A stretch of 64,000 nt of DNA from Naegleria gruberi (lineage: Eukaryota): the NCBI GenBank assembly GCA_000004985.1, contig GG738921.1, one strand, 5' to 3'. Positions 2,280-38,630 of the stretch are shown piece by piece. Both the position numbers and the translations under genes were made by a program. Positions within the stretch are counted from its first letter, which is position 1; each line of letters opens with the position of its first letter. Below the pieces are notes generated by a model that was not told the origin of the DNA, ran no database searches, and was given only the letters and a program-made list of their open reading frames with translations.

Positions 2280-3392
2280 ATGGTCATCCTCTCAAACAGA
2301 AGAATTTTACTTGTTGCTCGTCCGGAAAACACACCAAAATCTGCTCATTTCACACTGAGTGAACCAGTACAGGAAATCAATTCTGAAACTTGCCTAAACG
2401 AAGGTGAAATTCTTGTGAAAACCTTATTCCTCTCAGTGGATCCCTATTTACTCATGCCAATGGGAAGAAAGGGAGTGCATCCTGATGTGGTTCCTAATCA
2501 AACTCCATATCCATTGAAACAATTCAAGGATGCAGCAATTATTGCCAATGTTGGAGATGTGTTTGGAGGAAGAGGTGTTGGACACGTGGTTGCCACCAAA
2601 CATGATGATTACAAGGTTGGAGATTTGGTTGCTGCTGATTATAGATGGCAAGAATATGCAATTATTAGTGTAAAATCAGAGTTGACTTTTGAAAAATTGG
2701 AAAATGAAATATTTAGTCAAGTTTCTCCATCAACTGCTTTGGGTGTTTTGGGAGTGAGTGGTTCCCATGCATTGTGGGGTTTCAATTTCGTCCTTCCAAA
2801 AGATGAGAAACCAATCGAAGGAAAGACAATTGTTGTGAGTGCTGCAGCTGGTAGTATTGGACTAACTGTTGCTCAATTGGCCAAAAACAAGGGTTTCCGT
2901 GTGGTTGGTATTGCAGGAGGTGAAGAAAAGTGTGAGAAATTGATTTCTGAATTTAAATTGGATGCCGTAGTTGATTACAAAAAGGCAAATGGTGACTTGA
3001 CCTTACTTAGTCAATTATTGAAAGAAGCAGCTCCAAATGGAGTAGATGCATTCTTTGATAATGTAGGAGGATTGGTTGCTGATGCAGTTTATGAAAATCT
3101 CAATTTGAATGCAAGAGTTTATTTTTGTGGAGCTATTTCACAATATGGAGAAGGAAAATCAGTTTTAGCTCCAGAGAAATACACAAATAATCCAAATATT
3201 ACAAGTATTACATGTTTACAAGCTGATTATATTAATAATATTCCACAAGCAAGAAGAGAACTCTTTGAATTGATTCAAAAAGGTCAATTGAAACCAGTTG
3301 AGTGGATTACTAAGGGAATTGAACAAACTCCAAAAGTTTTTGAGGAGATGTATGCTGGAAGAAACTTTGGTAAAACACTTATTCAAATTTAA
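2280..3392 (+). CDS. NADP-dependent oxidoreductase of the MDR superfamily, prostaglandin reductase 1 / leukotriene-B4 12-hydroxydehydrogenase / alkenal reductase-like.
   Basis: Uninterrupted 370-aa ORF. It has the family motif LSVDPYLLMP and a Rossmann segment VVSAAAGSIGLTVAQLAKNKGFRVVGIAGG. An AATAAA follows the stop. Confidence 0.8.
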   Translation: MVILSNRRILLVARPENTPKSAHFTLSEPVQEINSETCLNEGEILVKTLFLSVDPYLLMPMGRKGVHPDVVPNQTPYPLKQFKDAAIIANVGDVFGGRGVGHVVATKHDDYKVGDLVAADYRWQEYAIISVKSELTFEKLENEIFSQVSPSTALGVLGVSGSHALWGFNFVLPKDEKPIEGKTIVVSAAAGSIGLTVAQLAKNKGFRVVGIAGGEEKCEKLISEFKLDAVVDYKKANGDLTLLSQLLKEAAPNGVDAFFDNVGGLVADAVYENLNLNARVYFCGAISQYGEGKSVLAPEKYTNNPNITSITCLQADYINNIPQARRELFELIQKGQLKPVEWITKGIEQTPKVFEEMYAGRNFGKTLIQI

Positions 3393-3636
3393 ACTCTTAT
3401 TTTCTATTTCAATAAATTACAAAATTTGTTTCACATTAGAAATTGTAATAATTTTACATAAAAAATAAGGAAATACTTTTAAATAATAGTAATTTTAGTG
3501 ATCTATACAATATATTTCCTATTACTAAATCAAATCTATCCACAATACTACCTTTCGAACAAACTTTACAATAAAAAATAATTTTTGGAAGAATCTCTTT
3601 ATTAAAGCAGACTAAAAAATAACAAATCAATAAATC

Positions 3637-4026
3637 TTAATAAGCTTCATCTTCATTAATATCCTCATCATCCTCACCAATATCTTCCATATTATCTTCA
3701 TCAATATTTTCAAAATTAGAACTTTCATCAGTTGGTAAAGAATCAAGTGTATCCAAAACTTCTCCTTCATCACTCAAAGTTTCTGCTTCAAGATTTTGTT
3801 CAAGAGCAGCTTCTTCTTCTTCCTCACCTTCGGAATTTTCAGTATTTGATTCAGTTGATGCCTCGGCAGTGTCAAGACTGTCAAGTGTCATTTCTTCTTC
3901 AGTTCCATCGAGGAGAGCAACTGATTCAGCGGAAACAACATTTGATGTAGAAGTTGTGGAGAAGAAACCGCTGATTAAGAAGAGGGTTAATAATAACAAG
4001 GAAAAGACAAGAAAACGTTTGTTCAT
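3637..4026 (-). CDS. Small secreted, highly acidic protein: signal peptide followed by a D/E/S/T-rich body.
   Basis: 129-aa ORF starting at an ATG. The N-terminus is hydrophobic (MNKRFLVFSLLLLTLFLISGFF) and the remainder is about 40% D+E. Confidence 0.4.
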   Translation of the reverse strand: MNKRFLVFSLLLLTLFLISGFFSTTSTSNVVSAESVALLDGTEEEMTLDSLDTAEASTESNTENSEGEEEEEAALEQNLEAETLSDEGEVLDTLDSLPTDESSNFENIDEDNMEDIGEDDEDINEDEAY

Positions 4027-4511
4027 TTTTTTTTGATAGTGAAATTTGATGTCTGACAGAAAATCGAGTCAACTTTCTGACCTAACAGAGCAGATTTATG
4101 TTTCATGATAATTATTAGAGAATGGACAAGGTGTTTTATTGGATTTTTAATTAAATTGTAAATTTTCTTTATTTAATAAAAAATCAAAAATTCAAAAATG
4201 GAAATTTTGAAATTGTAATTTTGATTTGGAATTGCTGATGACAAAGCAATGATGTAACAACATGATCAATCTCTTATCAATTACTACATCCAATTATTGA
4301 AAGTAAACTAATTTTATCTTTCGAATAATTTAGTTTACGTTTCGAATACATTTACCAGTTGAAACTTTATCTGTGAATTTTCCAACTGATGGCTTCCTTT
4401 TCCATACCAACCGTCTGTTCGAGTGTCAAATTGCACCTGTCATCAATTCAAAAAACATTAAAAAAAAATATTTCGTCGTCGTTCTTCTAACAAATAACAC
4501 AATCATCAAAA

Positions 4512-5492
4512 ATGGGTAATGTCATTCCTGTTAACACTCTCTTCTTGGGTATCGATGGAGCTGGTAAAGTAAGTAACATGAAATCTTTACATTTCGTCTA
4601 ATGTGTAAACTAATGTTTAAACTAATGTGTGTAAACTAAACTTTAGACCACCATCATCAACACTGGTATGAACAAATTCAAACAATTAAAACAAGAGCAA
4701 ATTGATGCTATACAACCAACTTTGGGACATGATTCAAAGAGATTTACAGTGGAAGGAGTTGAATTTATTTCATGGGATGTAAGTATTTGAAGAATTGAAC
4801 AAGTTTTCTAATAGTAGAAATTGTCATTGATTGAATGGTGTTGTTGTTTTGTTCATTGACTGCTCCAATAACAATAATAATAACAAATGTCATGTTGACG
4901 TGTAAAAAACTCGAAATCTTTGGATGATTTGAAAAAATATTAAAAAATTCGTGATGATATGAAAAATGGATTCGATTCTTGGCCATGACATGAATTTTTC
5001 TCACTATTTCTCACCACCATTGACAATACCACAACAACACATTGAACAATTCAATCACGACCACTTTGTTGCTTCCTATAGTTCCCTGGCAAGGAACAAC
5101 TTCGTTCCACATGGACTTCCTACTATAAACATGCTCAAGTCATTGTCTTTGTTGTTGACAGCTCTGATAGTGATGAACGTTTAGAAGAAGTTAAGGAAAT
5201 TCTCCACTCCATCATTCAAAATGTCCAATTACGTGAATGTTTGTTGTTGATTTTGGGTAACAAACAAGATTTGAATTCCACTAGAAATTTGGATAAATTG
5301 AAGGATACTCTCGGATTAGGAGGTAATTTAAGTGGATTACGTGATCGTACTTGGAAGATACTTACTTGTACTGCCAAAACTGGAGATGGTTTGGAAGATG
5401 CTTTCAAATGGTTGTCAACTGAAACAATGAAGGCCTATAAAAAGAGAGAAAGCAAGAAGAAGGAAGAAAAGAAGGAAGAAACTAAAAAATAA
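4512..5492 (+). CDS. ARF-like small GTPase (Arl family), three exons: 4512-4568, 4647-4778, 5082-5492.
   Basis: Exon 1 is MGNVIPVNTLFLGIDGAGK (P-loop GxDxAGKT), ending at a GTAAGT donor. Exon 2 ends ...FISWD, with a GTAAGT donor. Exon 3 reads FPGKEQLRSTW...LLILGNKQDL (G4 motif NKxD)...TAKTGDGLEDAFKWL. The phases are consistent and the protein is 199 aa. Confidence 0.8.
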
Positions 5493-5880
5493 TTGAACTA
5501 AGATGTTGTATTTCAATAAATCTAATTGTTAAATATCAAGACAGAGATCAATCGGTTTTAATTGAATATTGGGAGAAATATCCTATTGTTTCAAAGAAAA
5601 ACATGTTTAGGATAAATATTGAACTGAACTAAAATGTGATATCATAACAAGATGACACTTTGTTGAAAAATTTTAGTGCCATCTCACAGATTTGATCTCT
5701 CTTTCAACAATGCACCAATTGGATAACATTCTTTACAATTCAAATTCATCCCAATTTTTTGGTGCATTTTCCAATTTGAAATCCAAGTTCCAAACGAAAT
5801 TTAAAAATTCATCAAAAATTCCAAAAAATTCATAAAAAAAAATTCAAAACTTGAAATTTTCATCATTTCACTAATATAAA

Positions 5881-6988
5881 ATGTCTGCTCAATCCATTAG
5901 CTTTTCCAAGTATACAAAATTCGACAATCACTACAGAAAACAATACGTCGAATCGATCAAGACCCAAAATGAAGAGATGAGCAAGAAATTAAATCATCCA
6001 ATGGAATGGTATTGCTCCGAGAAGGTTCATGGTTGTAATTTGAGCTTTATTGTTGATAGAGTAAGGCAATCAGAGTATAAAGTAGAGGTTGCTAATCGTT
6101 CATGTGTTCTTTCACAATCATCAATGAGCTTTTATCCAAAAACAATTGAACAGTTGGAGAAAAAGTTTGAGTGGTGAATTGAATGAACAATTGAAATTGA
6201 AGAGTGTTCAAATTTATGGTGAATTATTTGGTGGATTATTCCCAAATAAGAAACCTTCAGATGCTAAGGCAATTCAAAGTGGAATTCACTATTGTCCACA
6301 TCATGATTTTTATGCTTTTGATGTTCTTCTCGGATTTGAGAATGGAAAACAATCTTGGGCTGTTTTTAACAATGTTGATCCATTGTTGGATGAGTGTGGA
6401 TTCAAAGTGAGAGCTCAACCATTGTTTAAGGGAACTTTGGACGAATGTTTGGAGTTTGATGTTAAATTTAACACTAAATTACCAGAAACTTTCTATCCAG
6501 AAATTGTAAAGGAAAGAAATGCTTCCTGGAAGGATTTGGATAATATTTGTGAAGGTGTTGTCATCAAACCAACCAAGTACAATATCTTTGTGGAAACTGA
6601 AAGAGCTGTAATCAAGAAGAAGAATGAAAAATTCTTGGAAACTGAAGCTAGTGATAAACCACAACAACCAGTGAAAAAGGAAAAGGGTGACTCTGAAGAG
6701 CTAGTTCAGGTATGGAATGAACTCTCACGATACATTACCTCCAATCGTTTGGATAATGTTCTCTCAAAGATTGGAAACCTCACCAAGAGTAACATGTTCC
6801 CAGTTATGAAGGAATTCTCAAATGATGCCCTCGAAGAATTTAAATTAGATTTGGAACGTGGTGCTTTGGAAAATTGTAAACCAGTTTCTTCACTTTCAAG
6901 TGAAGATCAGAAAAAGCTCACTAAAAAGATCAATGATGCTTGTATGGTTTTAATTAAGGAACAATTAAACAAACCATCATCAGAATAA
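5881..6988 (+). CDS. ATP-dependent RNA ligase of the Rnl2 family (phage T4 gp24.1 / kinetoplastid REL-like). The reading frame is broken once, at an A5 run at 6160-6164.
   Basis: The nucleotidyltransferase motifs are all present: motif I EKVHGCNLSF (KxHG), motif III HHDFYAFDV, motif IV EGVVIKP, motif V AVIKKKNEKF. The Rnl2-specific C-terminal domain is also present (SDKPQQPVKKEKGD...NRLDNVLSKIGNL). The N-terminus aligns with T4 Rnl2 (KYTKFDNHYRKQYVESI against KYSSLENHYNSKFIEKL; EWYCSEKVHGCNLSFIVDR against EWVAREKIHGTNFSLIIER). Supplied ORFs 5881-6177 and 6146-6988 are the two frames. Removing one A from the run restores a continuous 368-aa protein. Confidence 0.8.
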
Positions 6989-7098
6989 AGTGCAAGTTGA
7001 CTATTTCGAATAAAAGTGGTGTTACTGAAATAATTTACAATTTTTTGTTTTTTGAATACAAATTGCAATTTATTGATTATTTACCATACAATAACCAT

Positions 7099-7386
7099 TC
7101 AATAATTACGGTGTTTACCCTCATAGGTATGATAAACCTCTACTCTGTCTTGTTGTGGTACAGTATCGCTTCTTTTTTGATGGTCTGGAAAGTTTTGTAG
7201 GTGTTGTCTTAAATTGCCATGAATGTTACCAGTGGCAGCACACTTATGTCCTTGTGGGGTTTGACTACTAATGGGGTTATTTTGAGATTTAATTTGACTA
7301 CTTGTTTGGGAGTTATTTTGAGATTTAATTTGGCTACTTGTTTGGGAGTTATTTTGGCGACCAGTTTGGGATTTATGTTGAGTCAT
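7099..7386 (-). CDS. Possible small S/Q-rich protein (95 aa) encoded across a 36-bp tandem repeat. Low confidence.
   Basis: The ORF starts at an ATG, and the repeats encode NNSQTSSQIKSQ twice. It is divergent from the 7625 gene start. There is no homology support. Confidence 0.15.
   Translation of the reverse strand: MTQHKSQTGRQNNSQTSSQIKSQNNSQTSSQIKSQNNPISSQTPQGHKCAATGNIHGNLRQHLQNFPDHQKRSDTVPQQDRVEVYHTYEGKHRNY
7273..7382. repeat. About 36-bp tandem repeat with 2 full units plus a diverged third unit.
   Basis: The unit gggagttattttgagatttaatttg[a/g]ctacttgttt occurs back to back. The third copy has degenerated. Confidence 0.7.
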
Positions 7387-7624
7387 TTTGTTTCTGGCTT
7401 GTTTTATTTATTTTAACATACCACGTTTAACATCAAAACTTTTATTATAAAGAACTTTTGAGCCAAAAGGGAGACTTCATTTTTGGACAATTTCTTAATT
7501 TATGAAATTACTAGCTCAAGAGAAGCCCAAGACGAGTCAAGGATTTATTTGGTGTTGGTGAGCCTTTAAATTGAACCAATGACAATAAGGATATTGTTAA
7601 GAAATTTTAAAAAATCAGAAAAAA

Positions 7625-9562
7625 ATGCTCAACACTGAAACCAAGCTAACCTTCCATCATGCAATTTTCGAATTATCGGAAGGCTACTTTTTCATTGATC
7701 AAATTCTTCCATTCTTTTCTTTCAATGATTTGGAAAATTTATTTCTCACCTCCAAACATATTGCCGAGTTGGTGAGCAGACAACATCACATTGATTATTT
7801 AGCTGTTTTTAATGCTGGACTTGCACATTATTCATCATCGGGGAATCGGAATAGATGGATTGATTCAACTCCTCCGAATGAATTTCCATCACTGCTGCAA
7901 TTTGCAAATGGAATAAAAGTGATGATTGAAGCAGAGGGATCATGGCTGATTGAATATATTATTGGTTATTGTCGGAAGGTGAATAAGTTATTCAGTATTT
8001 CATATGATAAATATATTTATAATTGGTCACAAATGGATTTATCACTGATTAAGAATATTGAGGAGTTTGGACTTGTCAGGTTGGACATGTATAATTTTCC
8101 AAAATTTATGCCATTGTTTGAGGGAAAGAAAGTGAAACAGATTAAATTATCTATGGGATATATTTATCAAGATATCTTTGAACAGACTAGACCTGTTTTA
8201 GATAAGATCAATTTCAAGGAATTATATTATTCCATTTCATGGGTTTCTTCATTTAATATACTGAGTGAAGGTCTATCTAAGGAAGATTTAGATTTTAGAA
8301 ACAAGATAAAGATTTCAGTAGGTGATGTCGGGATAGATCAACACCATTATAGTTCGCTGAAAAACATTTCTAAATGTTTCGAGTTTAGTTCAATTACAAT
8401 TGAGAATGCTACAAAAAAAGAGGAGGATTATAGCGACCACAAATTTGACCTATTTTCAAAATCATACACCTTGAAAGCAGCTTTTTTAACCAAAGTACAG
8501 TCACTTGCATTGCCTAAATTCTCAAATACTGAGCCTTCAGCAATAGAAATGCATAATATTGAATTAGCTCTCAATAGTGCAAACATTGATACTTTTCATG
8601 TGCTACACACGACGAAATATTTAACAGAATTGAAATTGCAGGACTGTCACATTGATTTTTCAGATATTGATGCAATTGACTTGAAATTATTGAATAATAT
8701 GGTTTTGAATAGATGTAAATTTGTAAAGAATGGAAAACAATCAAATTTGGAATTTATTGAATGTATTAGTGCACCTAAACTCACAAATCTAACATGTGGT
8801 GACCTGTCGTTAAAATCAATTCCAATGATTTCAAAGAGTATCACCACTTTAAAATTAGGCAAGAATGAAATTGAAAATATCGAATTGGAAAGGTTAGATT
8901 CTATGAAAGGATTGACTAGTTTGGATTTATCAAATAACAAGTTAAATGATTTAAAAAACGTTCAGTCGATTATTGGAAAATTCAAGGACCTGAAATTGAA
9001 TGGAAATCCAATCTTTAAACGTATGATGATTAACAAAAACAAACTAGAATTTATTAACGATGACTGTAAACATGATGTTAAAAGATCGAGTAAGCTAAAC
9101 ACAAAACCAAAATTTTCTGGAACAGATGTGGAAATTATCAAACAATTCAGAATCATTATCTCTCAGAGAGATTATCCACACTGTGTTGAAAGGAAGGATT
9201 TTCTTAAACTAATTTCAAATCCAAAAAAACCAAACAGCTTGGACGAAACAAATGTGATTTTCTGGAACCATCACTACAGCAACAGTCAAACATCATTGTC
9301 AAAAGATGGAAATACCACATTTGTTGGAACTAATTTTACAAGCTTTTGTCAAGTTGCCATCTATCTAAACAATTATTTACAACACGAGTTTTGCTCTAAA
9401 TGGTATTTTTTCGGTATTAATGGAACAGATAATATTGAGCCACTGCATAATAGAGAATTGCTAAATGAGGTGTCCTATATTGTGCATGAATGGTCCTTTG
9501 TTTCCTCTCACATTGAATTTGTTAGAGAATTGAGAAGAAAATATCCTTCGAATTCTTTCTAA
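7625..9562 (+). CDS. F-box-like / leucine-rich-repeat protein (645 aa).
   Basis: The N-terminus has an F-box-like segment (FHHAIFELSEGYFFIDQILPFFSFNDLENLFLTSKHIAELV). C-terminal LRRs are present (LTSLDLSNNKLNDLKNVQSIIGKFKDLKLNGNPI). Single ORF from an ATG to TAA. Confidence 0.6.
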   Translation: MLNTETKLTFHHAIFELSEGYFFIDQILPFFSFNDLENLFLTSKHIAELVSRQHHIDYLAVFNAGLAHYSSSGNRNRWIDSTPPNEFPSLLQFANGIKVMIEAEGSWLIEYIIGYCRKVNKLFSISYDKYIYNWSQMDLSLIKNIEEFGLVRLDMYNFPKFMPLFEGKKVKQIKLSMGYIYQDIFEQTRPVLDKINFKELYYSISWVSSFNILSEGLSKEDLDFRNKIKISVGDVGIDQHHYSSLKNISKCFEFSSITIENATKKEEDYSDHKFDLFSKSYTLKAAFLTKVQSLALPKFSNTEPSAIEMHNIELALNSANIDTFHVLHTTKYLTELKLQDCHIDFSDIDAIDLKLLNNMVLNRCKFVKNGKQSNLEFIECISAPKLTNLTCGDLSLKSIPMISKSITTLKLGKNEIENIELERLDSMKGLTSLDLSNNKLNDLKNVQSIIGKFKDLKLNGNPIFKRMMINKNKLEFINDDCKHDVKRSSKLNTKPKFSGTDVEIIKQFRIIISQRDYPHCVERKDFLKLISNPKKPNSLDETNVIFWNHHYSNSQTSLSKDGNTTFVGTNFTSFCQVAIYLNNYLQHEFCSKWYFFGINGTDNIEPLHNRELLNEVSYIVHEWSFVSSHIEFVRELRRKYPSNSF

Positions 9563-29473: not shown

Positions 29474-31277
29474 ATGGCGCAAGATAACACCACGGATGAA
29501 TTGAATGAATTTTTTAATGATTTATTGGAGAGCAATGTGGAAGGAGGAGATAATCCCCTCCTACAGCAACAAGAACAAGAACAACAAGATGATGAATTAT
29601 TGCATCCTATATCATGTTCCTATTGTCGGAAAAACCATCGGTACGTGTGTGGTTCTTTAGAATTATAATTAATAATATTAAATTAAATTAAATAGAAAGT
29701 GTGGTATGTAATTTATCAGCTGATGCCGATTGTGACCAGAATAATAATTACATCATAAATGATGAAATAGATAGAAAGAAGCCTTCATGTACTAATTGTG
29801 TGAGAAAGGGAGTTGTTTGTAACTATTCGGATCCATTAAAGAAGGGAAGAAAAAAGAAATCGGAAAAGGAAGTGGAGGAAATTCATGAAGAGAAGAAGAA
29901 AAATTCTTCAAAGAAAGCTGTTAGTAGTAGTAGTAGTGGAAGTAGTCATCATTCAACAACAACCTCTTCAGCAATTCCCTATAAAACAATTCATATCGAT
30001 TCCGATGATATTCTATTGAAAAGATCAACATTTGATTTATTTGGTCTATTGTACGTTGTTAGTAATTGTTTAAATAATTATTGACGATTGGAAATAGAGA
30101 TATACCAATTCAACAATCAGATTTTGAAAATTATTACAATATGGCTCAGAATGGAGTGTTAAAGGATGATGTTATTAATGCAATCTTATTTGGTTGTCAG
30201 GCTCTAATTGACCAAAGATTAGGAGATAAGGAAGCATCGAAATTATCATTTAATAAGGCAAGGAAACTCATACAACCATATTTTGATAATATTGATGATA
30301 TTAATGTAGGATGTGTCTACTTTTTATTTTGTTCGTTTGAAGCTTCAAATGCAAATTATAGAAAGGTAGCTCTATATTATAATATTTTGAAAACCTTTGT
30401 GGATGAAATTGTCAAAATGGAAAATTCCAACATCAAGTTGACAACACAAATGAAAAGGTTAAAAAGCAGGACTAGATTTATTGAAATGACTATGAGTACC
30501 TCTCAAGATATAGACTGTAATAATCCTCTAGCAATTGCCAAAATGTTTCCAAGACTGGTCTATGTTGCCACAGGAGTTGATGGATTTGCTGAACTATGTG
30601 CAAAATTAGAACATTTAGATAAGGACAGAATTGAAGAACATTTAGCTACTGTTGATTCTGTGTGCATATTCATGAACAATCATATGAGACAAATGGACGA
30701 AAGTGGTGATCGCAAAAATGTAATTGATTTAATGGGAAATATTGTTTCGAATGGAATGAAACTGGCTTCCTACCTCACAGTAGATAATGACAATTGGGAG
30801 AAGATAATGACTTACTCGACCAATATTACTACAGCAACAGAGAATCCACTCTTTGTATTTCTTCCAGCGGCTGTTGTGTCTCATGTTGCCATGGCAGCTA
30901 AACAACATTTGAGACTGTGGTCCTTAATCAGATTGGGAATGGTTTCAGATTTCTTCCAAGGAAAAAACACTCTCTCACAATTAATCTATCAAAGTTATAG
31001 AGCTCTCAGTATTCTCTCCACTCGATTCGATCGCGTCCAAAAATTCTACTCTGATCTCTATCAAGAATTGGAACACTTCATTAAGGAATACTTTACCCAA
31101 CAAAATCAACTTGATTCCACCCTTCTCAACAATACTACTATTGTTATTGATAACAACACTGCAACAACTACAAATGAACCTTTATTACCTGACCTACAAC
31201 CACCACCACCAGAAAGTTCATTCACAAGCATGCTTGATGATTCTTTCTTTTTCGATCCACCACAACATTTTGAATAA
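29474..31277 (+). CDS. Putative Zn(II)2Cys6 (GAL4-type) transcription-factor-like protein, at least 3 exons (29474-29640, 29700-about 30060, about 30081-31277). The exon 2/3 junction is unresolved.
   Basis: Exon 1 ends CSYCRKNHR with a GTACGT donor. Exon 2 continues (R)VVCNLSADADC...KKPSCTNCVRKGVVCNYS, a C-x2-C-x6-C cluster, followed by a basic stretch. The C-terminal 398-aa ORF has no clear domain. Confidence 0.4.
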
Positions 31278-31505: not shown

Positions 31506-34500
31506 ATGGAAAGTTATTGTTCATTGGATGAAGACAAGATGATGATGTATTCAAAGAAGCCGGATAATAGTAATGATAACGATAATAGTACTGGAACACA
31601 AACATCATCAAATTGTGGATGTATTGAAAATAATAACAATGATGAAGAAGTAGAACAACAACATGCTGACCAGCAACAACAACAACAGAAAATAGATAAT
31701 GATGAATTGTTAATGGAAATGATTCTAAATAACATACTGCCTATTAATGATAGCAGTGATGATAGTATTACAGCAATATCATCATCCTCAGCAAAATTAT
31801 TATCTAATAATTATTATAATACAGAAAGTAACAATAATTTATCTACCGAAGAAGAACCATCATCATCAACAATGGAAGAAGAGCAAGCTACACTATTGGC
31901 TGATGAAGAATCTGCCAATTATAACATTATCTCTGATTCTTGCTCTACTACATCATCTAACAACTCTAATAACACAACATGCTCAACAAGCACTAATTAT
32001 AATCATCACAAACAACAACATGATGATAAGGACGACAACATGCAATGTAAATACAATGAGAGACAAAGAAGAGCCCTTGCTCTACTGATGGCCATCAGAG
32101 ACAAATATGAGAAAAACCTTGAAAAGAGTAGTAAGATAACAACAACAAGTGGAGGATCTTTATATTCATCTAAAAGGATGAGTTCAACGAGAATAACAAC
32201 TAACACGAGCACAACAGCAGCATGTTCTTCATTCAAAACAATGCTCAAACTTGCACTCGTGTTGATAGTTGGAGTGTGGTGCGTCTTATCATTCATGAGT
32301 GACGTTATAATACTTGATGATTATGCAGCAAGTGGTTTTCATCATCGTTATGAATATTTGGAAGATGATTTCTATGAATTCAATCATAATAATATAATGT
32401 TTGTGATGGCGGAACCACCTGGCATTTCGCCCCAAGCCCTAAAGGAAATACTAAGCAGAGAATCGGAAATTATGAGGCAAGAACCGATATACAATGATTT
32501 TAGCTTCAGTTCCTTATTTTCAATGAATGGTTTACATAGTTTAGCAAGCAAGGCAACTGACTTTTTGCAGAGGGGTGGTTTTGAATCGAGTGCTGATGTG
32601 GCAACTCAATGCCTGATTAATAGTCCGAGAAAATGTGACAACTCTAGGAAATTACAATTGATTCAATTCAACTGGCTTGGACCAACTGTAAATGCTAATG
32701 TTGCCAAGATTGTCCTAGAGGAAATGTTGGGAATATGTGCAGAAATTGTAACAATGAATGTAACTCATGCTCTTGAAGAGATGGCAGAATATGGAACGAG
32801 AAGATCATATGCCATGCTTGAATTTTGGAGTGAATCTAGAAAATTTCAATACGACAAGTATGTTGTCAATGATAAGACTATAATGGGTAAGTTGATATCC
32901 ACCACAATATCAAAAACTAATTCAAATCAAAAATTCAAATTACTATTTTGACAGATGTTGGTGAGTTAGGTATCAATGCAAAGTTGGGTTGGTACATTTT
33001 AGGTTTCATGAAGGATGAGTATGACCTTATCGACGAATACAGAGAGTATAGAACTGAGAAGGCAGCTCACTACCTTGCAACTAACGATACCTATCCACTT
33101 GGTAGGTTTATAGGAGGAGCAAAGAGCTGGATCACTTTTGATCAACAAATTATAACAAATCTCAAGCTCAATCTCCAGATACAATATACACAGGAAGAAA
33201 ATGCAGAGGATTTTCTGATTTCAAAAATTCAAGAAGCAAACGATAGAAAAGAACCAGTATTGTTCTATCTTTGGTATCCTCATCAAATTTTCAAAAAGCT
33301 GTCTATTAAGAATGTTTACCTTCCTCCTAGTTCAGAAAGTTGTTGGACCTCTTACAATCAAGAGAATCAACTCATTGATTGTGACTATCCAACAGAGTTA
33401 TTGAGAAAATTGGTCTCCCCAAAACTCACAGAGGATATGGTTCTCAACTCCTTCTTTTCCAAATTTGCCTATGAAAGTACAGATCAAATAGATATTTTGG
33501 CAGATATTGTGTTTCAGGAAATGTCAGTAGTTGATGCATCTTGTAAGTGGCTGAGAAATAACACAAAAAGAGTAGCTTATTGGGTATCTGATCATAATGA
33601 TACCTCCAGTAGTGTGATTGGTATAGTGATTGCATCTCTGTTTGTCATTTCGCTCTTCTTCTGTACTATATTTATTACTGGTTTGGTGCTTTACTTTATG
33701 TATAGAAAGAATTTGAGAAAGAGATCTCTTAAATATGCCCCAAGAACAACACCATTCACTCTAGTTTTTACAGATATTCAAAACTCTACACTTTTGTGGG
33801 CTACTGCCTCTGAAACGATGAAATCAGTACTGTCTATTCACAACATTATTATGAGGTCAAACATTCAAAAGTACAAGGGTTATGAGGCCAAGACAGCAGG
33901 TGATAGTTTCACTGTGGCATTTGTTGATCCGTTGTGTGCACTGGCTTTTTGCATTAGTGTTCAGAAGGATTTATTGCTGGCCAATTGGCCTTCTGATTCT
34001 CTTCTACTTCCTGATATGAAGGAAGTTAGGTGGAATGAAAGCTTGATTTACAGAGGTCCTAGAATTAGAATGGGAATACATGCGGGATCTGATTGCAATA
34101 TTCAAATTGACAAAAAGACGCAACGTATGGAATATGTGGGCAATATGGTTCATATTGCTAACAAGATTGAGGCATCATCAGTTGGTGGCAGAATTTATGT
34201 TTCAGGTGCTTTTGTCCAAGCTATCAAGAGTAGATTAATGTTGTTTGATTCTGCTTCCAACTCTAGTAATCCAAAGACTTCCAAAGAAGATGTAACTACA
34301 TCTGCCAACACTCAATATTATGATGATTCCTCTGATAAAGGAATAAGCAAATACGTGCAGGAATTGAATAATAACTTGATTGAATTTGAAGATCTAGGAC
34401 CTAAGCAAGAAATTGAAATTGGAGGAACAAAGATACCCTTATTTATGGTAAAAGATTTTAGCTTTGCAAGAACATCTTGGATTCAGCAATTCGAAAGAGT

Positions 34501-34756
34501 TCTAGAAGAGTCACCAGTAGAAGAACAAAAAGTAATTGGCCAAAAATTGGACCTGATTGAAGAGGTGGAAAAGTTTATTACAGATCCGGGCTCATTCCCA
34601 GCTGAAAGAAAGTCAAAATTAATATATGACTTTATCAACCACACCTCCGATGCTGAGCTCAATCTTCCATCATGGAATAGCAAGTATTTTATTGATTTAT
34701 TCGACAATGTCTTCCGTTACATTACTACCCAACATGTAAACATTAAGGAAGAATAA
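31506..34756 (+). CDS. Receptor-type class III adenylyl cyclase (about 1060 aa). Two exons: 31506-32886 and 32955-34756.
   Basis: A 68-nt intron has donor g|GTAAGT and acceptor ttttgacag, joining phase 1. The N-terminal roughly 240 aa are N/Q/S/D-rich. TM1 is LALVLIVGVWCVLSF. A roughly 400-aa luminal/extracellular domain follows, then TM2 (VIGIVIASLFVISLFFCTIFITGLVLYFMY), then the cyclase domain. The cyclase domain has the first metal Asp in FTDIQNST, the second Asp in KTAGDSFTVAF, and the N/R pair in VGNMVHIANKIE and GPRIRMGIHAG. Confidence 0.75.
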
Positions 34757-35056: not shown

Positions 35057-35553
35057 ATGGCCAGAACCAAGCAAACTGCATATAGAGGAGTTGGGCAAAA
35101 GGCTCCAAGAAAGAGTATTGCCAATAAGATTGCCAAGTAAGTTTTTGTCTTCTGAACTAGTTTCATTAACATGGTTTTGTAATTTTTCTTTAATTGCAAT
35201 TGATTAACAGGAAATCTGCCAAGCAACCACATAGTGGCGGTCTTAAAAAGGTTCACAGATACAAACCAGGTACAGTTGCCTTGAGAGAAATCAGAAAGTA
35301 TCAAAAATCTACCGAGTTGCTCATCAGAAAATTACCATTCCAAAGATTAGTCAGAGAAATTGCACAAGACTACAAATCAGATTTGAGGTTCCAATCCAAT
35401 GCAGTCCTAGCCCTTCAAGAAGCTTCTGAAGCTTATCTTGTCTCTCTCTTTGAGGATACTAATTTGTGTGCAATTCACGCCAAGAGAGTTACCATCATGC
35501 ATAAGGATATGCAACTCGCTGCAAGAATTAGAGGTGAAAAGCTAAATAAATAA
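35057..35553 (+). CDS. Histone H3 variant with one intron (exons 35057-35136 and 35211-35553; 141 aa).
   Basis: [26 protein letters not shown]|[11 protein letters not shown]... and then a near-canonical histone fold ([39 protein letters not shown]...ARIRGEK). GTAAGT donor and ttaacag acceptor. The N-tail diverges from canonical H3: K9 and K27 contexts are altered. Confidence 0.8.
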
Positions 35554-35664: not shown

Positions 35665-36698
35665 TTATCTTAAAATCCACATTGAATCAACTCCTTGAAT
35701 GGATGACAAAATTGAGCCACCAATCCATGAAGAATACTTTCTCTCAGGTGGAGCCACAACCCTACACGGTGTCAGATTAAGTTCCCTCTTGAGTCTTTCT
35801 GTAAAATTAGGGAAGAGAGTATTTCCTCCAGAGAGAATAATGTTTTTCTGACATTCTTCCTTGAATTTCGAATCGAGATGTTGTAAAGATTTGAGAATTA
35901 GCTCATGAATGGAAGCTCTGGTTTTTCAATGAGAGAAGGTTGAAAGAGAGCTTCTGGACATTTGTATTGATCTAGACCAAGTGAAATGCCATTTTCTCCA
36001 ATTTCATAATATCGATCACAAATGTCAAATCTTTGAGTTTCCCAATGATAATCCATTGAAATCTGACACAATCTTTGCTTTATCTGAATTAAATGTTCGA
36101 CCCCTGTAGAGCTATCAAATTCTTCTCCAATTTTGTATCCACAATTTTCAATCAACTTTTCCAAAAATAGAGATAAATCCCTTCCACCAAATTCCACACC
36201 ACAACAATGTTGAGTTAACACTTGGCCCTCATCAATAGTAACTGAATTAGTGATACAATCTCCACTCTTCAATACCAATCCAGTTGTCCTGCCAGATGCC
36301 AAAAGTGATAACATGTTCCTGTCAGCCAAAGCAAAAACAGGAACTCCCAATTTCTCAAAAACAATCTCTGTAATTCCCACTCTCGTTCTTTTCACATTAT
36401 TCAATGAATTATATCCTATTAGAATCGGATATTCCTTCATTTCAATAATTTTCATTTCTTCCAAAATTAAATGTTCCAACATTAGTTCTAAATCGTCCAA
36501 TTGAGTGATAATTCCTTTATCGATTGGATATTTTAGATCAGGAAGTAAAGAATTTGATTTAATTTTGGAGTAAATTCTTCTGGATTGACCTGTCAGAGAT
36601 TTGTTGATGTCTGAAGTGGGCTCATCGTCCATTCCATAGCCTGTGGAAATGGTGCCAGAACCCAAGTCAATAACTACCTTTGTGTTGTGTTGATACAT
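35665..36698 (-). CDS. Actin-related protein (Arp) with one frame break at a T5/A5 run (plus-strand 35922-35926).
   Basis: Supplied ORF 35898-36698 ends ...CPEALFQPSLIEKPELPFMS*. The downstream frame continues actin-collinear: SIHELILKSLQHLDSKFKEECQKNIILSGGNTLFPNFTERLKRELNLTPCRVVAPPERKYSSWIGGSILSSIQGVDSMWIL. The N-terminus is VVIDLGSGTISTGYG. Confidence 0.65.
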
Positions 36699-37169: not shown

Positions 37170-38630
37170 ATGGAATCGATAGAGTTGGAATCAACATCGG
37201 CTTCTAATTTATCTAAGAGTTCCGCTTCGTCTTTGAATACAACAACGAAGGAACACAAGCACAAACATCATCATCATGATCACGGAGATCACCATCATGA
37301 TCATGAACATCATCACGATGATGAAGATGACAATTCAACGGATCAAACTCAACTTTTAAAAACATCTTCGAGTGGATTGATGGAATATGAATTGGATCGT
37401 GTAAAATTGAATGGTGAAACGTTGAAGAAAATTTACCTCTCCAAGAGTAAACCACTGTGGAAGGAACCAGATTTTGTCAAGATGGTTATTATGATTACTA
37501 TGGTTTTACTCATGTTTTTAGCTGAACTTACTGTTGGTGTGATGGCCGAGTCTCTTACATTGTTGGCTGATTCGTTCCACATGCTTTCCGATGGTATTTC
37601 CTTGATGGTTGGAGCTGCATGCATTTGGTTAGCAAAGAAAGGACCAACTAATTTAATGACATTTGGTTTTGGAAGAGCTGAAACATTGGGAGGTTTGATT
37701 AATGCTGTCTTTTTGGTCAGTGTTGTGTTGTATGTGATTATGGAATCAATTCAAAGGTTTTTCATGCCGGAGAGGATTACTGATCCTTTATTAGTATTGT
37801 GTGTTGGAGGTGCTGGTCTTTTAATTAACTTGATTGGACTTGTCATGTTCTGTGGCCATCATCCTCATCCTGGACACGATCATGACCACGACCACGGACA
37901 TGGACATAGTCATAAACATTCACACGAAGAACACGACCACGATCATGAACACGAACATAATCATGACCATGACCATTCTCATCATGAACACGAACATACT
38001 GAAAAGAAGGAGCACAAGGAACACAAGCACAGATCTGAAAATATTTTCGGTGTCTTTTTACACATTTTGGGAGATTTCCTTGGTTCCATTGCTGTCATGA
38101 TTTCCTCTGGTCTTTTACTCATCTTTGATAAGAAGGATGAAAATGGTAATTATCCACACACTTGGGTTCTCTATGTTGATCCAGTTCTCAGTCTTATTAT
38201 GAGTGGTATTATTCTAGTTACTGCCATTCCTCTTTTGAAATCAACTTGTAGAACTTTGTTGCAATCTGTACCACATGATGTTGATATTCCTAAATTGAAA
38301 TCAAGTATTTTGGAAGTTGAGGGAGTTCTTTCTTGTCATGAATTGCATGTTTGGCAACTTGTTGGAAAGACCTCAATTGCCAGTGTTCACATTCTCACTA
38401 CTGAAAATAATAGAGGATTTATGAGAATTGCCAAACAACTTCAAAAGGTATTCCACAAGTTTAATATCCATGCCTCCACTATTCAACCAGAATTCATTTC
38501 AAGCACTTCAAATAATAAGGGAGAAGAAGCTCAGCCATGTCATCTTTTATGTACCGATACTTGCTATGAACATTTTTGTTGTGCTCCAAATCCAGCAAAG
38601 GAAGATATTGATCCAGCAGAAAATGTGTAA
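37170..38630 (+). CDS. Cation-diffusion-facilitator zinc transporter (ZnT/SLC30-like) with His-rich N-terminus and cytoplasmic loop.
   Basis: 486-aa single ORF. Six TM helices. The CDF signature includes HMLSDGISL. A long (HD/HE)n loop is present: HDHDHDHGHGHSHKHSHEEHDHDHEHEH. Confidence 0.8.
   Translation: MESIELESTSASNLSKSSASSLNTTTKEHKHKHHHHDHGDHHHDHEHHHDDEDDNSTDQTQLLKTSSSGLMEYELDRVKLNGETLKKIYLSKSKPLWKEPDFVKMVIMITMVLLMFLAELTVGVMAESLTLLADSFHMLSDGISLMVGAACIWLAKKGPTNLMTFGFGRAETLGGLINAVFLVSVVLYVIMESIQRFFMPERITDPLLVLCVGGAGLLINLIGLVMFCGHHPHPGHDHDHDHGHGHSHKHSHEEHDHDHEHEHNHDHDHSHHEHEHTEKKEHKEHKHRSENIFGVFLHILGDFLGSIAVMISSGLLLIFDKKDENGNYPHTWVLYVDPVLSLIMSGIILVTAIPLLKSTCRTLLQSVPHDVDIPKLKSSILEVEGVLSCHELHVWQLVGKTSIASVHILTTENNRGFMRIAKQLQKVFHKFNIHASTIQPEFISSTSNNKGEEAQPCHLLCTDTCYEHFCCAPNPAKEDIDPAENV

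Follow-up and report, generated by a model that had tools for sequence, protein, structure and literature searches.

A predicted receptor-type class III cyclase of Naegleria gruberi with an OpuAC-type solute-binding ectodomain

Introduction

Although receptor cyclases of protozoa, those of trypanosomes above all, were discovered decades ago, the ligands that they recognise in nature have yet to be found (PMC6027212). In the trypanosome receptor cyclases, activity is controlled by the proximity and the orientation of the dimer (PMC6027212). Most class III cyclases carry two metal-binding Asp, a Lys/Asp pair that sets specificity and an Asn/Arg pair for the transition state (PMC4215837). Naegleria papers have counted cyclases only in bulk (PMC9928731). 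Here, we describe a cyclase gene of Naegleria gruberi, a single + strand gene that occupies exactly positions 31506-34756 of a 64,000-nucleotide stretch of contig GG738921.1 (assembly GCA_000004985.1), hereafter the window. The window is AT-rich eukaryotic DNA (GC content 0.29-0.37).

According to our analysis, the product of this gene joins a solute-binding domain of the OpuAC/ProX type to one class III cyclase domain that resembles those of trypanosomes. We consider it probable, by homology, that the protein is a plasma-membrane receptor which couples the binding of a betaine-like compound to the synthesis of cyclic AMP (cAMP). A first-pass annotation, made from the sequence alone, had read it as a receptor-type homodimeric adenylyl cyclase whose ectodomain might be a novel sensor module.

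Results

Gene model

Two adjoining + strand open reading frames (ORFs), at 31506-32951 and 32948-34756, differ in frame, and excision of one short intron restores the frame, giving a coding sequence of 3183 nt (1060 codons and a stop codon). The splice junction (…DKTIM/DVGELG…) aligns without gaps to homologues, and a query with residues 241-1060 (820 residues) gave 100% identity to the 1060-aa NCBI/UniRef entry 'adenylate cyclase [Naegleria gruberi]'. It follows from the restored frame, this identity and the gap-free junction that the gene, its coordinates and its reading are real. The database entry already carries precomputed Pfam matches to PF04069 and PF00211. The intron at 32887-32954 had gone unmentioned in the first-pass annotation.

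The ectodomain is an OpuAC/ProX-type solute-binding domain

The large domain that precedes the second hydrophobic segment belongs to a known sensor family, with the two-lobed fold of OpuAC-type binding proteins. PF04069 (OpuAC), labelled 'substrate binding domain of ABC-type glycine betaine transport system' (Pfam), matches residues 383-661 with E=3e-12 and 47.1 bits against a cut-off of 21.2, and the match spans profile positions 3-256 of 257. The best PDB relatives by sequence are 4XZ6, 3TMG and 7YLE. Free-standing bacterial relatives are 28-33% identical, and two of them are annotated as binding proteins of glycine betaine/proline transport systems. P0010 has a lipoprotein-like N-terminus. 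An AlphaFold2 model built from a 32-sequence alignment reached a predicted local distance difference test (pLDDT) score above 90 for residues 369-677, residues 265-368 being mostly disordered. When this model was compared with the PDB by Foldseek, the best match was TmoX with bound trimethylamine N-oxide (TMAO) (4XZ6; E=4e-21, TM-score 0.89, root mean square deviation 2.7 Å). The top matches were all ligand-bound betaine-type binding proteins, namely TmoX, DmpX with dimethylsulfoniopropionate (DMSP), ProX, OpuAC, ChoX and the ergothioneine binder EgtU.

The first-pass annotation had seen neither a CHASE nor a periplasmic-binding-protein signature, and had proposed a profile search for CHASE, Cache and periplasmic binding proteins. 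In that search it proved right on CHASE, and the OpuAC match places the ectodomain clearly among the periplasmic binding proteins. Across the whole protein, CHASE, Cache, type-I periplasmic binding proteins and other sensor families gave no Pfam match at E<=1. A match to the XH domain (E=0.03-0.09) fell below its cut-off and was regarded as noise. The notion of a novel sensor fold was rejected on the Pfam match, the PDB sequence matches and the Foldseek match together.

Binding box and candidate ligands

TmoX binds TMAO in a box formed by W55, W102, W177 and W222, together with F106, F220 and E131 (PMC8918994). The four-Trp box for quaternary ammonium groups is intact in the N. gruberi protein, and in the sequence alignment its Trp residues are conserved in nearly all 32 relatives. 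Position 445 (F106 in TmoX) is Arg in 9 of the 13 aligned cyclase-fused proteins, six of these nine being named Naegleria or Willaertia proteins, and His in 12 of the 18 other sequences of our pocket residue table. Arg445 is thus a mark of the cyclase-fused clade, conserved in its heterolobosean proteins, at a site where free bacterial binding proteins have His. In Escherichia coli ProX, His69, four residues after the box Trp, contacts the betaine carboxylate.

The ligand would, by inference, carry a head group of the quaternary ammonium (or sulfonium) type and probably an anionic tail. Arg445 probably contacts this tail, which would favour a carboxylate betaine. Candidate ligands would be glycine betaine, proline betaine, carnitine, choline derivatives, TMAO, DMSP and ergothioneine. 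TMAO as the specific ligand, suggested by the top match to 4XZ6, was not supported: the residue at the position of the TMAO-contacting Glu131 is Leu471, and this position is variable in the family. For the same reason, the closest structure does not reveal which exact compound is bound.

Membrane layout

Transmembrane (TM) helices were called from Kyte-Doolittle means above 1.6 in 19-aa windows. Just two hydrophobic segments qualified, at residues ~246-270 (TM1) and ~681-710 (TM2), separated by ~410 residues. A third candidate at 778-797 was rejected, as it lies buried within the cyclase fold, which is modelled with confidence. Charges are basic just before TM1 and acidic after it. TM2, whose position is conserved in all aligned homologues, is followed by the basic stretch YRKNLRKRSLK, predicted to lie on the cytoplasmic side, and an R/K-rich exit is likewise kept in all aligned homologues. 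Hydropathy and charge distribution fit a topology with both termini inside and residues 271-680 outside. An extracellular ectodomain is further indicated by Cys590 and Cys603, which are invariant in all 32 aligned relatives including the periplasmic bacterial proteins, and by the sequon N662-N-T, one of four N-x-S/T sequons in the ectodomain, which is invariant among the seven aligned Naegleria-type homologues. Hydropathy and Pfam thus bear out the first-pass layout of a receptor-type class III cyclase with a cytoplasmic N-terminus, two TM segments and a large ectodomain, with a predicted topology; the sizes given there, ~240 aa for the low-complexity N-terminus and ~400 aa for the extracytoplasmic domain, compare well with the ~245 residues that precede TM1 and the ~410 between the segments.

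Residues 1-245 have no counterpart in the aligned homologues, which are likewise non-conserved upstream of TM1. The flexible tether of ~100 aa between TM1 and the binding domain contains one conserved helix at ~309-323 ('EPPxxSP...', model residues 45-59), and pLDDT is below 50 elsewhere in the tether. Its 'EPPxMSP' motif is conserved in the Naegleria homologues. Gene models of N. lovaniensis begin after TM1, and the in-frame DNA upstream of them encodes a hydrophobic segment followed by 'RAEPPxMSP'. For this reason, we regard TM1 as conserved and the N. lovaniensis models as truncated, and reject the reading of these as single-TM homologues that lack TM1.

On N. lovaniensis contig PYSW02000002.1 (L001), two OpuAC-cyclase genes form a tandem pair at 3031-5400 and 6001-8147. 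Both public models start at an internal Met ('MSP...') and look N-terminally truncated. The upstream regions ~2800-3030 and ~5800-6000 encode the missing TM1 and the conserved 'RAEPP' motif.

Cyclase domain and catalytic residues

The protein contains one Guanylate_cyc domain (PF00211; E=2.7e-16, 60.1 bits against a cut-off of 21.9), in agreement with the single catalytic domain of the first-pass annotation. The kinetoplastid resemblance noted there also holds. Trypanosoma brucei GRESAG4.1 and GRESAG4.3 (1FX2/1FX4) are the best solved cyclase relatives by sequence (E ~1e-21) and also by Foldseek, where the cyclase model matched 1FX2 and many other cyclases. The AlphaFold2 cyclase fold has pLDDT above 90 over residues 717-897 and 918-961, with a disordered insert at ~897-917 between them. 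Since residues 918-961 complete the cyclase fold after this insert, the C-terminal tail is really ~100 aa long, and a 170-aa extension from residue 890 was rejected. The tail has no Pfam match, and phmmer matched it only to the Naegleria proteins that are grouped below as clade 1 and, weakly, to Willaertia.

Catalytic residues were read by alignment to 1FX2 and 213 related cyclase domains. The canonical set D-K-D-D-N-R appears here as D734-K773-D777-E853-H860-K864. The first-pass annotation had listed the metal-binding Asp, the substrate Lys and the transition-state Asn/Arg; the former (D734, D777 and K773) are present, while the latter are His860 and Lys864. In the specificity pair, K773 is kept and the replacement of Asp by E853 is conservative, though unique among the OpuAC-fused domains. 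The Asn/Arg positions are N and K in the closest Naegleria homologues, and N and R in most other relatives. A conserved 'LKG' lysine near the end of the cyclase fold, a phosphate ligand in mammalian C2, is missing.

Loss of the Asn would not necessarily be fatal to activity. Rv1900c (1YBT), an active enzyme, has a His at the position aligned to H860. Ma1120, in which an Ala stands in for the Asn, is active (PMC4215837). We expect ATP as the substrate and cAMP as the product, as Lys773 is kept and the guanine-specifying Glu/Cys pair is absent. With Glu853, His860 and Lys864 and without the LKG lysine, the active site departs from the canonical set, so that the homodimer may be only weakly active, or a partner chain may be needed.

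Relatives and distribution

An exhaustive profile search returned many proteins with both an OpuAC and a cyclase domain, and 31 fetched sequences have the two parts in the same order. The architecture occurs in N. lovaniensis (including the tandem pair), N. fowleri and Willaertia magna, in the euglenids Entosiphon sulcatum and Eutreptiella gymnastica, in the prokinetoplastid Papus ankaliazontas, and also in an MMETSP transcript and many metagenome contigs. As the architecture is conserved, we take it to be functional. The sensor belongs to a known family and the protein to an annotated group in Naegleria, Willaertia and Euglenozoa, which, by the criterion that the first-pass annotation itself had set, refutes its suggestion of a novel module. 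In a crude neighbor-joining tree without support values, 11 cyclase-fused ectodomains group together, apart from those fused to phosphodiesterases (PDEs) and from the bacterial ones; six of the 11 are named Naegleria, Willaertia or Entosiphon proteins, and five are metagenome or transcriptome sequences. Our literature search found no description or test of an OpuAC-coupled cyclase, and no paper that links Naegleria cyclases to glycine betaine.

The OpuAC ectodomain was also seen in other combinations. The Archamoebae Pelomyxa schiedti (P0124) and Mastigella eilhardi (P0152) have it together with a 3'5'-cyclic nucleotide phosphodiesterase domain (PDEase_I), and would represent receptor-type PDEs with a betaine-type sensor. 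Position 445 is His in both, like in most aligned free-standing binding proteins. In the ichthyosporean Chromosphaera perkinsii (P0117), OpuAC is joined to protein-kinase-like and guanylate cyclase domains, a layout that mirrors the animal receptor guanylyl cyclases with the OpuAC sensor in place of the ANF-receptor domain. N. fowleri P0006 (FDP41_001103) carries a C-terminal Lactamase_B part (PF00753) of ~230 aa that is absent from all homologues, and N. lovaniensis P0162 (C9374_005017) an N-terminal F-box-like domain. These extra domains are probably gene-model fusions with neighbouring genes.

Features and neighbouring genes

The features of the gene and its product are given in Table 1. 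Just upstream of it, two abutting ORFs at 29701-31277 (+) were found. The first matches the binuclear cluster of the fungal Zn(2)-Cys(6) type (PF00172), with E=3e-4 just at the threshold, and the second, of 398 aa, gave no Pfam match. Probably, both belong to a single transcription-factor gene that is divided by an intron or a change of frame. Downstream, an ORF of the histone H3 family lies at 35194-35553 (+; PF00125, E=1e-43). It has a divergent N-terminal tail and no ATG at its listed start, and could be an H3 variant or a centromeric H3, or have an upstream exon. A partial actin-family ORF (35898-36698, -; E=4e-35) and a cation-efflux (CDF) transporter ORF (37170-38630, +) have no functional link to the cyclase. 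No genes for an ABC betaine importer were found near the cyclase locus.

Table 1. Features of the N. gruberi cyclase gene and its product (positions in the window).
Feature	Residues	Position	Strand	Remarks
Exon 1		31506-32886	+	codons 1-460 and first base of codon 461; ORF, donor GTAAGT at 32887
Intron		32887-32954	+	68 nt, canonical short, GTAAGT...TGACAG
Exon 2		32955-34756	+	includes stop codon 34754-34756
N-terminal region	1-245	31506-32240	+	low-complexity, N/S/T/Q-rich, non-conserved, predicted cytoplasmic
TM1	246-270	32241-32315	+	predicted signal anchor; hydropathy
Tether	271-374	32316-32627	+	acidic, mostly disordered, between TM1 and binding domain
OpuAC/ProX-type domain	375-678	32628-33607	+	interrupted by the intron; Pfam, PDB sequence matches, AlphaFold2, Foldseek
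Box residue	W390	32673-32675	+	aligns to TmoX W55
Box residue	W441	32826-32828	+	aligns to TmoX W102
Pocket residue	R445	32838-32840	+	aligns to TmoX F106
Pocket residue	L471			aligns to TmoX E131
Box residue	W519	33128-33130	+	aligns to TmoX W177
Pocket residue	Y565			aligns to TmoX F220
Box residue	W567	33272-33274	+	aligns to TmoX W222
TM2	681-710	33614-33703	+	hydropathy; conserved position
Class III cyclase catalytic domain	716-961	33719-34456	+	PF00211, 1FX2/1FX4 alignment, AlphaFold2, Foldseek
Metal Asp	D734	33773-33775	+	present
Substrate/specificity Lys	K773	33890-33892	+	present
Metal Asp	D777	33902-33904	+	present
Adenine-specifying Asp	E853	34130-34132	+	replaced by Glu
Transition-state Asn	H860	34151-34153	+	replaced by His
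Transition-state Arg	K864	34163-34165	+	replaced by Lys
C-terminal helical tail	962-1060	34457-34753	+	AlphaFold2, four helices (966-1057), pLDDT 40-80

Discussion

Proposed mechanism

We posit that the protein works as a receptor for betaine-like compounds in the following way. A trimethylammonium- or dimethylsulfonium-type head group would be caught by cation-pi contacts with W390, W441, W519 and W567, and the two lobes would shut on the bound betaine-type compound like a Venus flytrap. This closure would be passed on through TM2, into which the last helix of the binding domain is modelled to run almost directly. The cyclase core begins only ~17 residues after TM2, and neither a HAMP domain nor a coiled coil was detected between the two. 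Given this near-direct link, the short spacing and the lack of a HAMP domain or coiled coil, closure would be expected to change the pairing of the two catalytic domains, and thereby the cAMP output.

Several points weigh against such a receptor. The topology with the N-terminus inside depends on the annotated start codon M1; with a start at M246, TM1 would instead act as a signal peptide that can be cleaved off, leaving a single-pass mature protein. In the pocket, Glu131, which binds the TMAO oxygen in TmoX, is replaced, and the pocket geometry and the orientation of Arg445 are taken from sequence alignment only. In the catalytic domain, Arg has changed to Lys, Asn to His and Asp to Glu, and the LKG lysine is lost; in our comparison of 29 OpuAC-fused cyclase domains, that of the N. 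gruberi gene is the most degenerate.

Alternative readings

The state of the catalytic residues differs between groups of relatives. Most OpuAC-fused cyclases are fully canonical (DSKDDNRE at the eight scored positions), and the Willaertia, euglenid and prokinetoplastid proteins P0018, P0039, P0076 and P0120 are canonical at all six catalytic positions. Within Naegleria, two clades have degenerated in a complementary manner. Clade 1 consists of the N. gruberi gene, P0002-4 and P0006 (N. lovaniensis, N. fowleri) and the metagenome protein P0007. It keeps both metal Asp, FTDIQNST and GDSF, with the Arg changed to Lys and the LKG lysine lost. Clade 2 consists of P0019/P0162/P0168 (N. lovaniensis) and P0169/P0164 (N. 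fowleri), with P0023 clustering with P0164. Here, the first metal Asp is gone (FTSIQNA or FTHIQNA) and KTxGD has become KTH[L/A]D; the Asp, Asn, Arg and LKG lysine are kept.

This pattern suggests heterodimers of clade 1 and clade 2 with one competent site, comparable to C1/C2. The N. gruberi protein would then be the C1-like chain that contributes the metal Asp, and a partner would supply Lys/Asp/Asn/Arg and the LKG lysine, giving one competent and one degenerate site as in the mammalian membrane adenylyl cyclases and soluble guanylyl cyclase. It would fit this reading that the Willaertia, euglenid and prokinetoplastid proteins are canonical and that the further drift of the N. gruberi protein (E853, H860) is confined to the 'C2 side'. 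The exchange of Arg for Lys is conservative, on the other hand, and Lys773 is retained. Moreover, neither a word-indexed search with P0162 nor the representatives of the exhaustive profile search yielded a clade-2 protein in N. gruberi, where a gene model may have been missed. Since no such protein was found, the asymmetric heterodimer stays a minority hypothesis for N. gruberi, and we regard it as unlikely. The wider proposal that the Naegleria OpuAC-cyclases are obligate heterodimers, built from a clade-1 metal half-site and a Lys/Asp/Asn/Arg/LKG half-site on a second chain, is doubtful to a similar degree. If it were true, it would describe a betaine receptor with two sensors and a single active site, of an origin independent of animal C1/C2, and the first protozoan receptor cyclase family with a ligand class readable from sequence; the N. 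gruberi partner would be some cyclase other than those identified.

The same alterations could also mean that the cyclase domain is catalytically dead. The protein would then be a betaine-binding surface receptor or scaffold that acts through contacts with other proteins or modulates other cyclases, and would make no cAMP of its own. Four of the seven usual catalytic residues are altered (E853, H860, K864 and the lost LKG lysine), in a pattern that is unique among the 29 domains compared. However, conservation is strict for both metal Asp, for Ser738 and Lys773 and for the fold core, which would not be expected in a domain freed from catalytic constraint, and active cyclases without the Asn are known (PMC4215837). 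We therefore hold a pseudo-cyclase to be very unlikely.

More doubtful still is the reading of the first-pass annotation, a canonical homodimeric adenylyl cyclase with an unclassified ectodomain. The topology and the single cyclase domain were confirmed, the metal Asp and the Lys are present, and the related trypanosome enzymes act as homodimers (PMC6027212). The ectodomain, however, is clearly OpuAC by sequence and fold, and the prediction of a homodimer had leaned on an Asn/Arg pair that is H860/K864 here, with E853 and the loss of the LKG lysine in addition. In the absence of the transition-state pair, homodimeric activity is possible but not predicted from the sequence. Finally, a guanylyl cyclase is extremely improbable: the Pfam family spans both enzyme types and Glu853 replaces the adenine-specifying Asp, but the first specificity residue is the adenylyl-typical Lys773, the Glu and Cys/Ser/Gly pair is absent, and the nearest relatives are adenylyl cyclases.

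Comparison with known systems

The gene is already annotated and its domain pair is visible in automatic annotation, so that its value is that of an experimental lead and not of a new principle. The protein is a genuine member of both Pfam families, OpuAC and Guanylate_cyc. It combines a trypanosome-type catalytic domain with a sensor family of well-understood chemistry, and it is this understanding of the aromatic box that yields a short, testable list of candidate ligands. We posit that the protein offers a tractable model for the control of a class III cyclase by a binding-protein ectodomain.

The bacterial betaine-type binding proteins TmoX (4XZ6), DmpX (7YLE), ProX (1R9L/3TMG), OpuAC (3L6H) and ChoX (2REG) have the same Pfam family and fold as the ectodomain, and they share with it the four-Trp box (TmoX) and the Cys pair. 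While the bacterial proteins work alongside ABC importers, either free or held by a lipid anchor, the N. gruberi domain is built into a signalling enzyme. The pockets differ at the position of TmoX Phe106, which is His in free relatives and Arg445 here, and at that of TmoX Glu131, which is Leu471.

Adenylyl cyclase G (ACG) of Dictyostelium, an osmosensing enzyme, is likewise a receptor-like class III cyclase of a protist with an extracellular sensor. Its ectodomain is of the CHASE type, whereas the N. gruberi protein has only OpuAC and no CHASE or Cache match at E<=1. ACG has been cited as structurally homologous to the trypanosome receptor cyclases (PMC9928731).

In mammalian C1/C2 and in the alpha/beta subunits of soluble guanylyl cyclase, the catalytic residues are split over two chains, and Naegleria clades 1 and 2 are complementary in a similar way. 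In Naegleria, each half would be a receptor chain of its own and would carry a sensor of its own.

The closest catalytic domains, by sequence and by fold, are those of the trypanosomatid ESAG4/GRESAG4 cyclases (1FX2, 1FX4), and the N. gruberi domain is of the GRESAG4 type. Trypanosomatids and Naegleria both belong to Discoba. Both kinds of protein share an extracellular sensor with a binding-protein fold, a TM span, a class III domain and a C-terminal tail of ~100 aa (PMC6027212). In the trypanosome enzymes, the ectodomain consists of two type-I Venus-flytrap domains, and the signal peptide is followed by just one TM segment (PMC6027212). In N. gruberi, a lone domain of the OpuAC type (cluster F), whose quaternary-ammonium box is readable, lies between two hydrophobic segments. 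The trypanosome enzymes also keep the Asp/Asn/Arg that are Glu/His/Lys here. With one OpuAC domain instead of two type-I flytraps, and two hydrophobic segments instead of one, the N. gruberi protein stands outside the trypanosome receptor cyclase family in the strict sense, although it would work alike.

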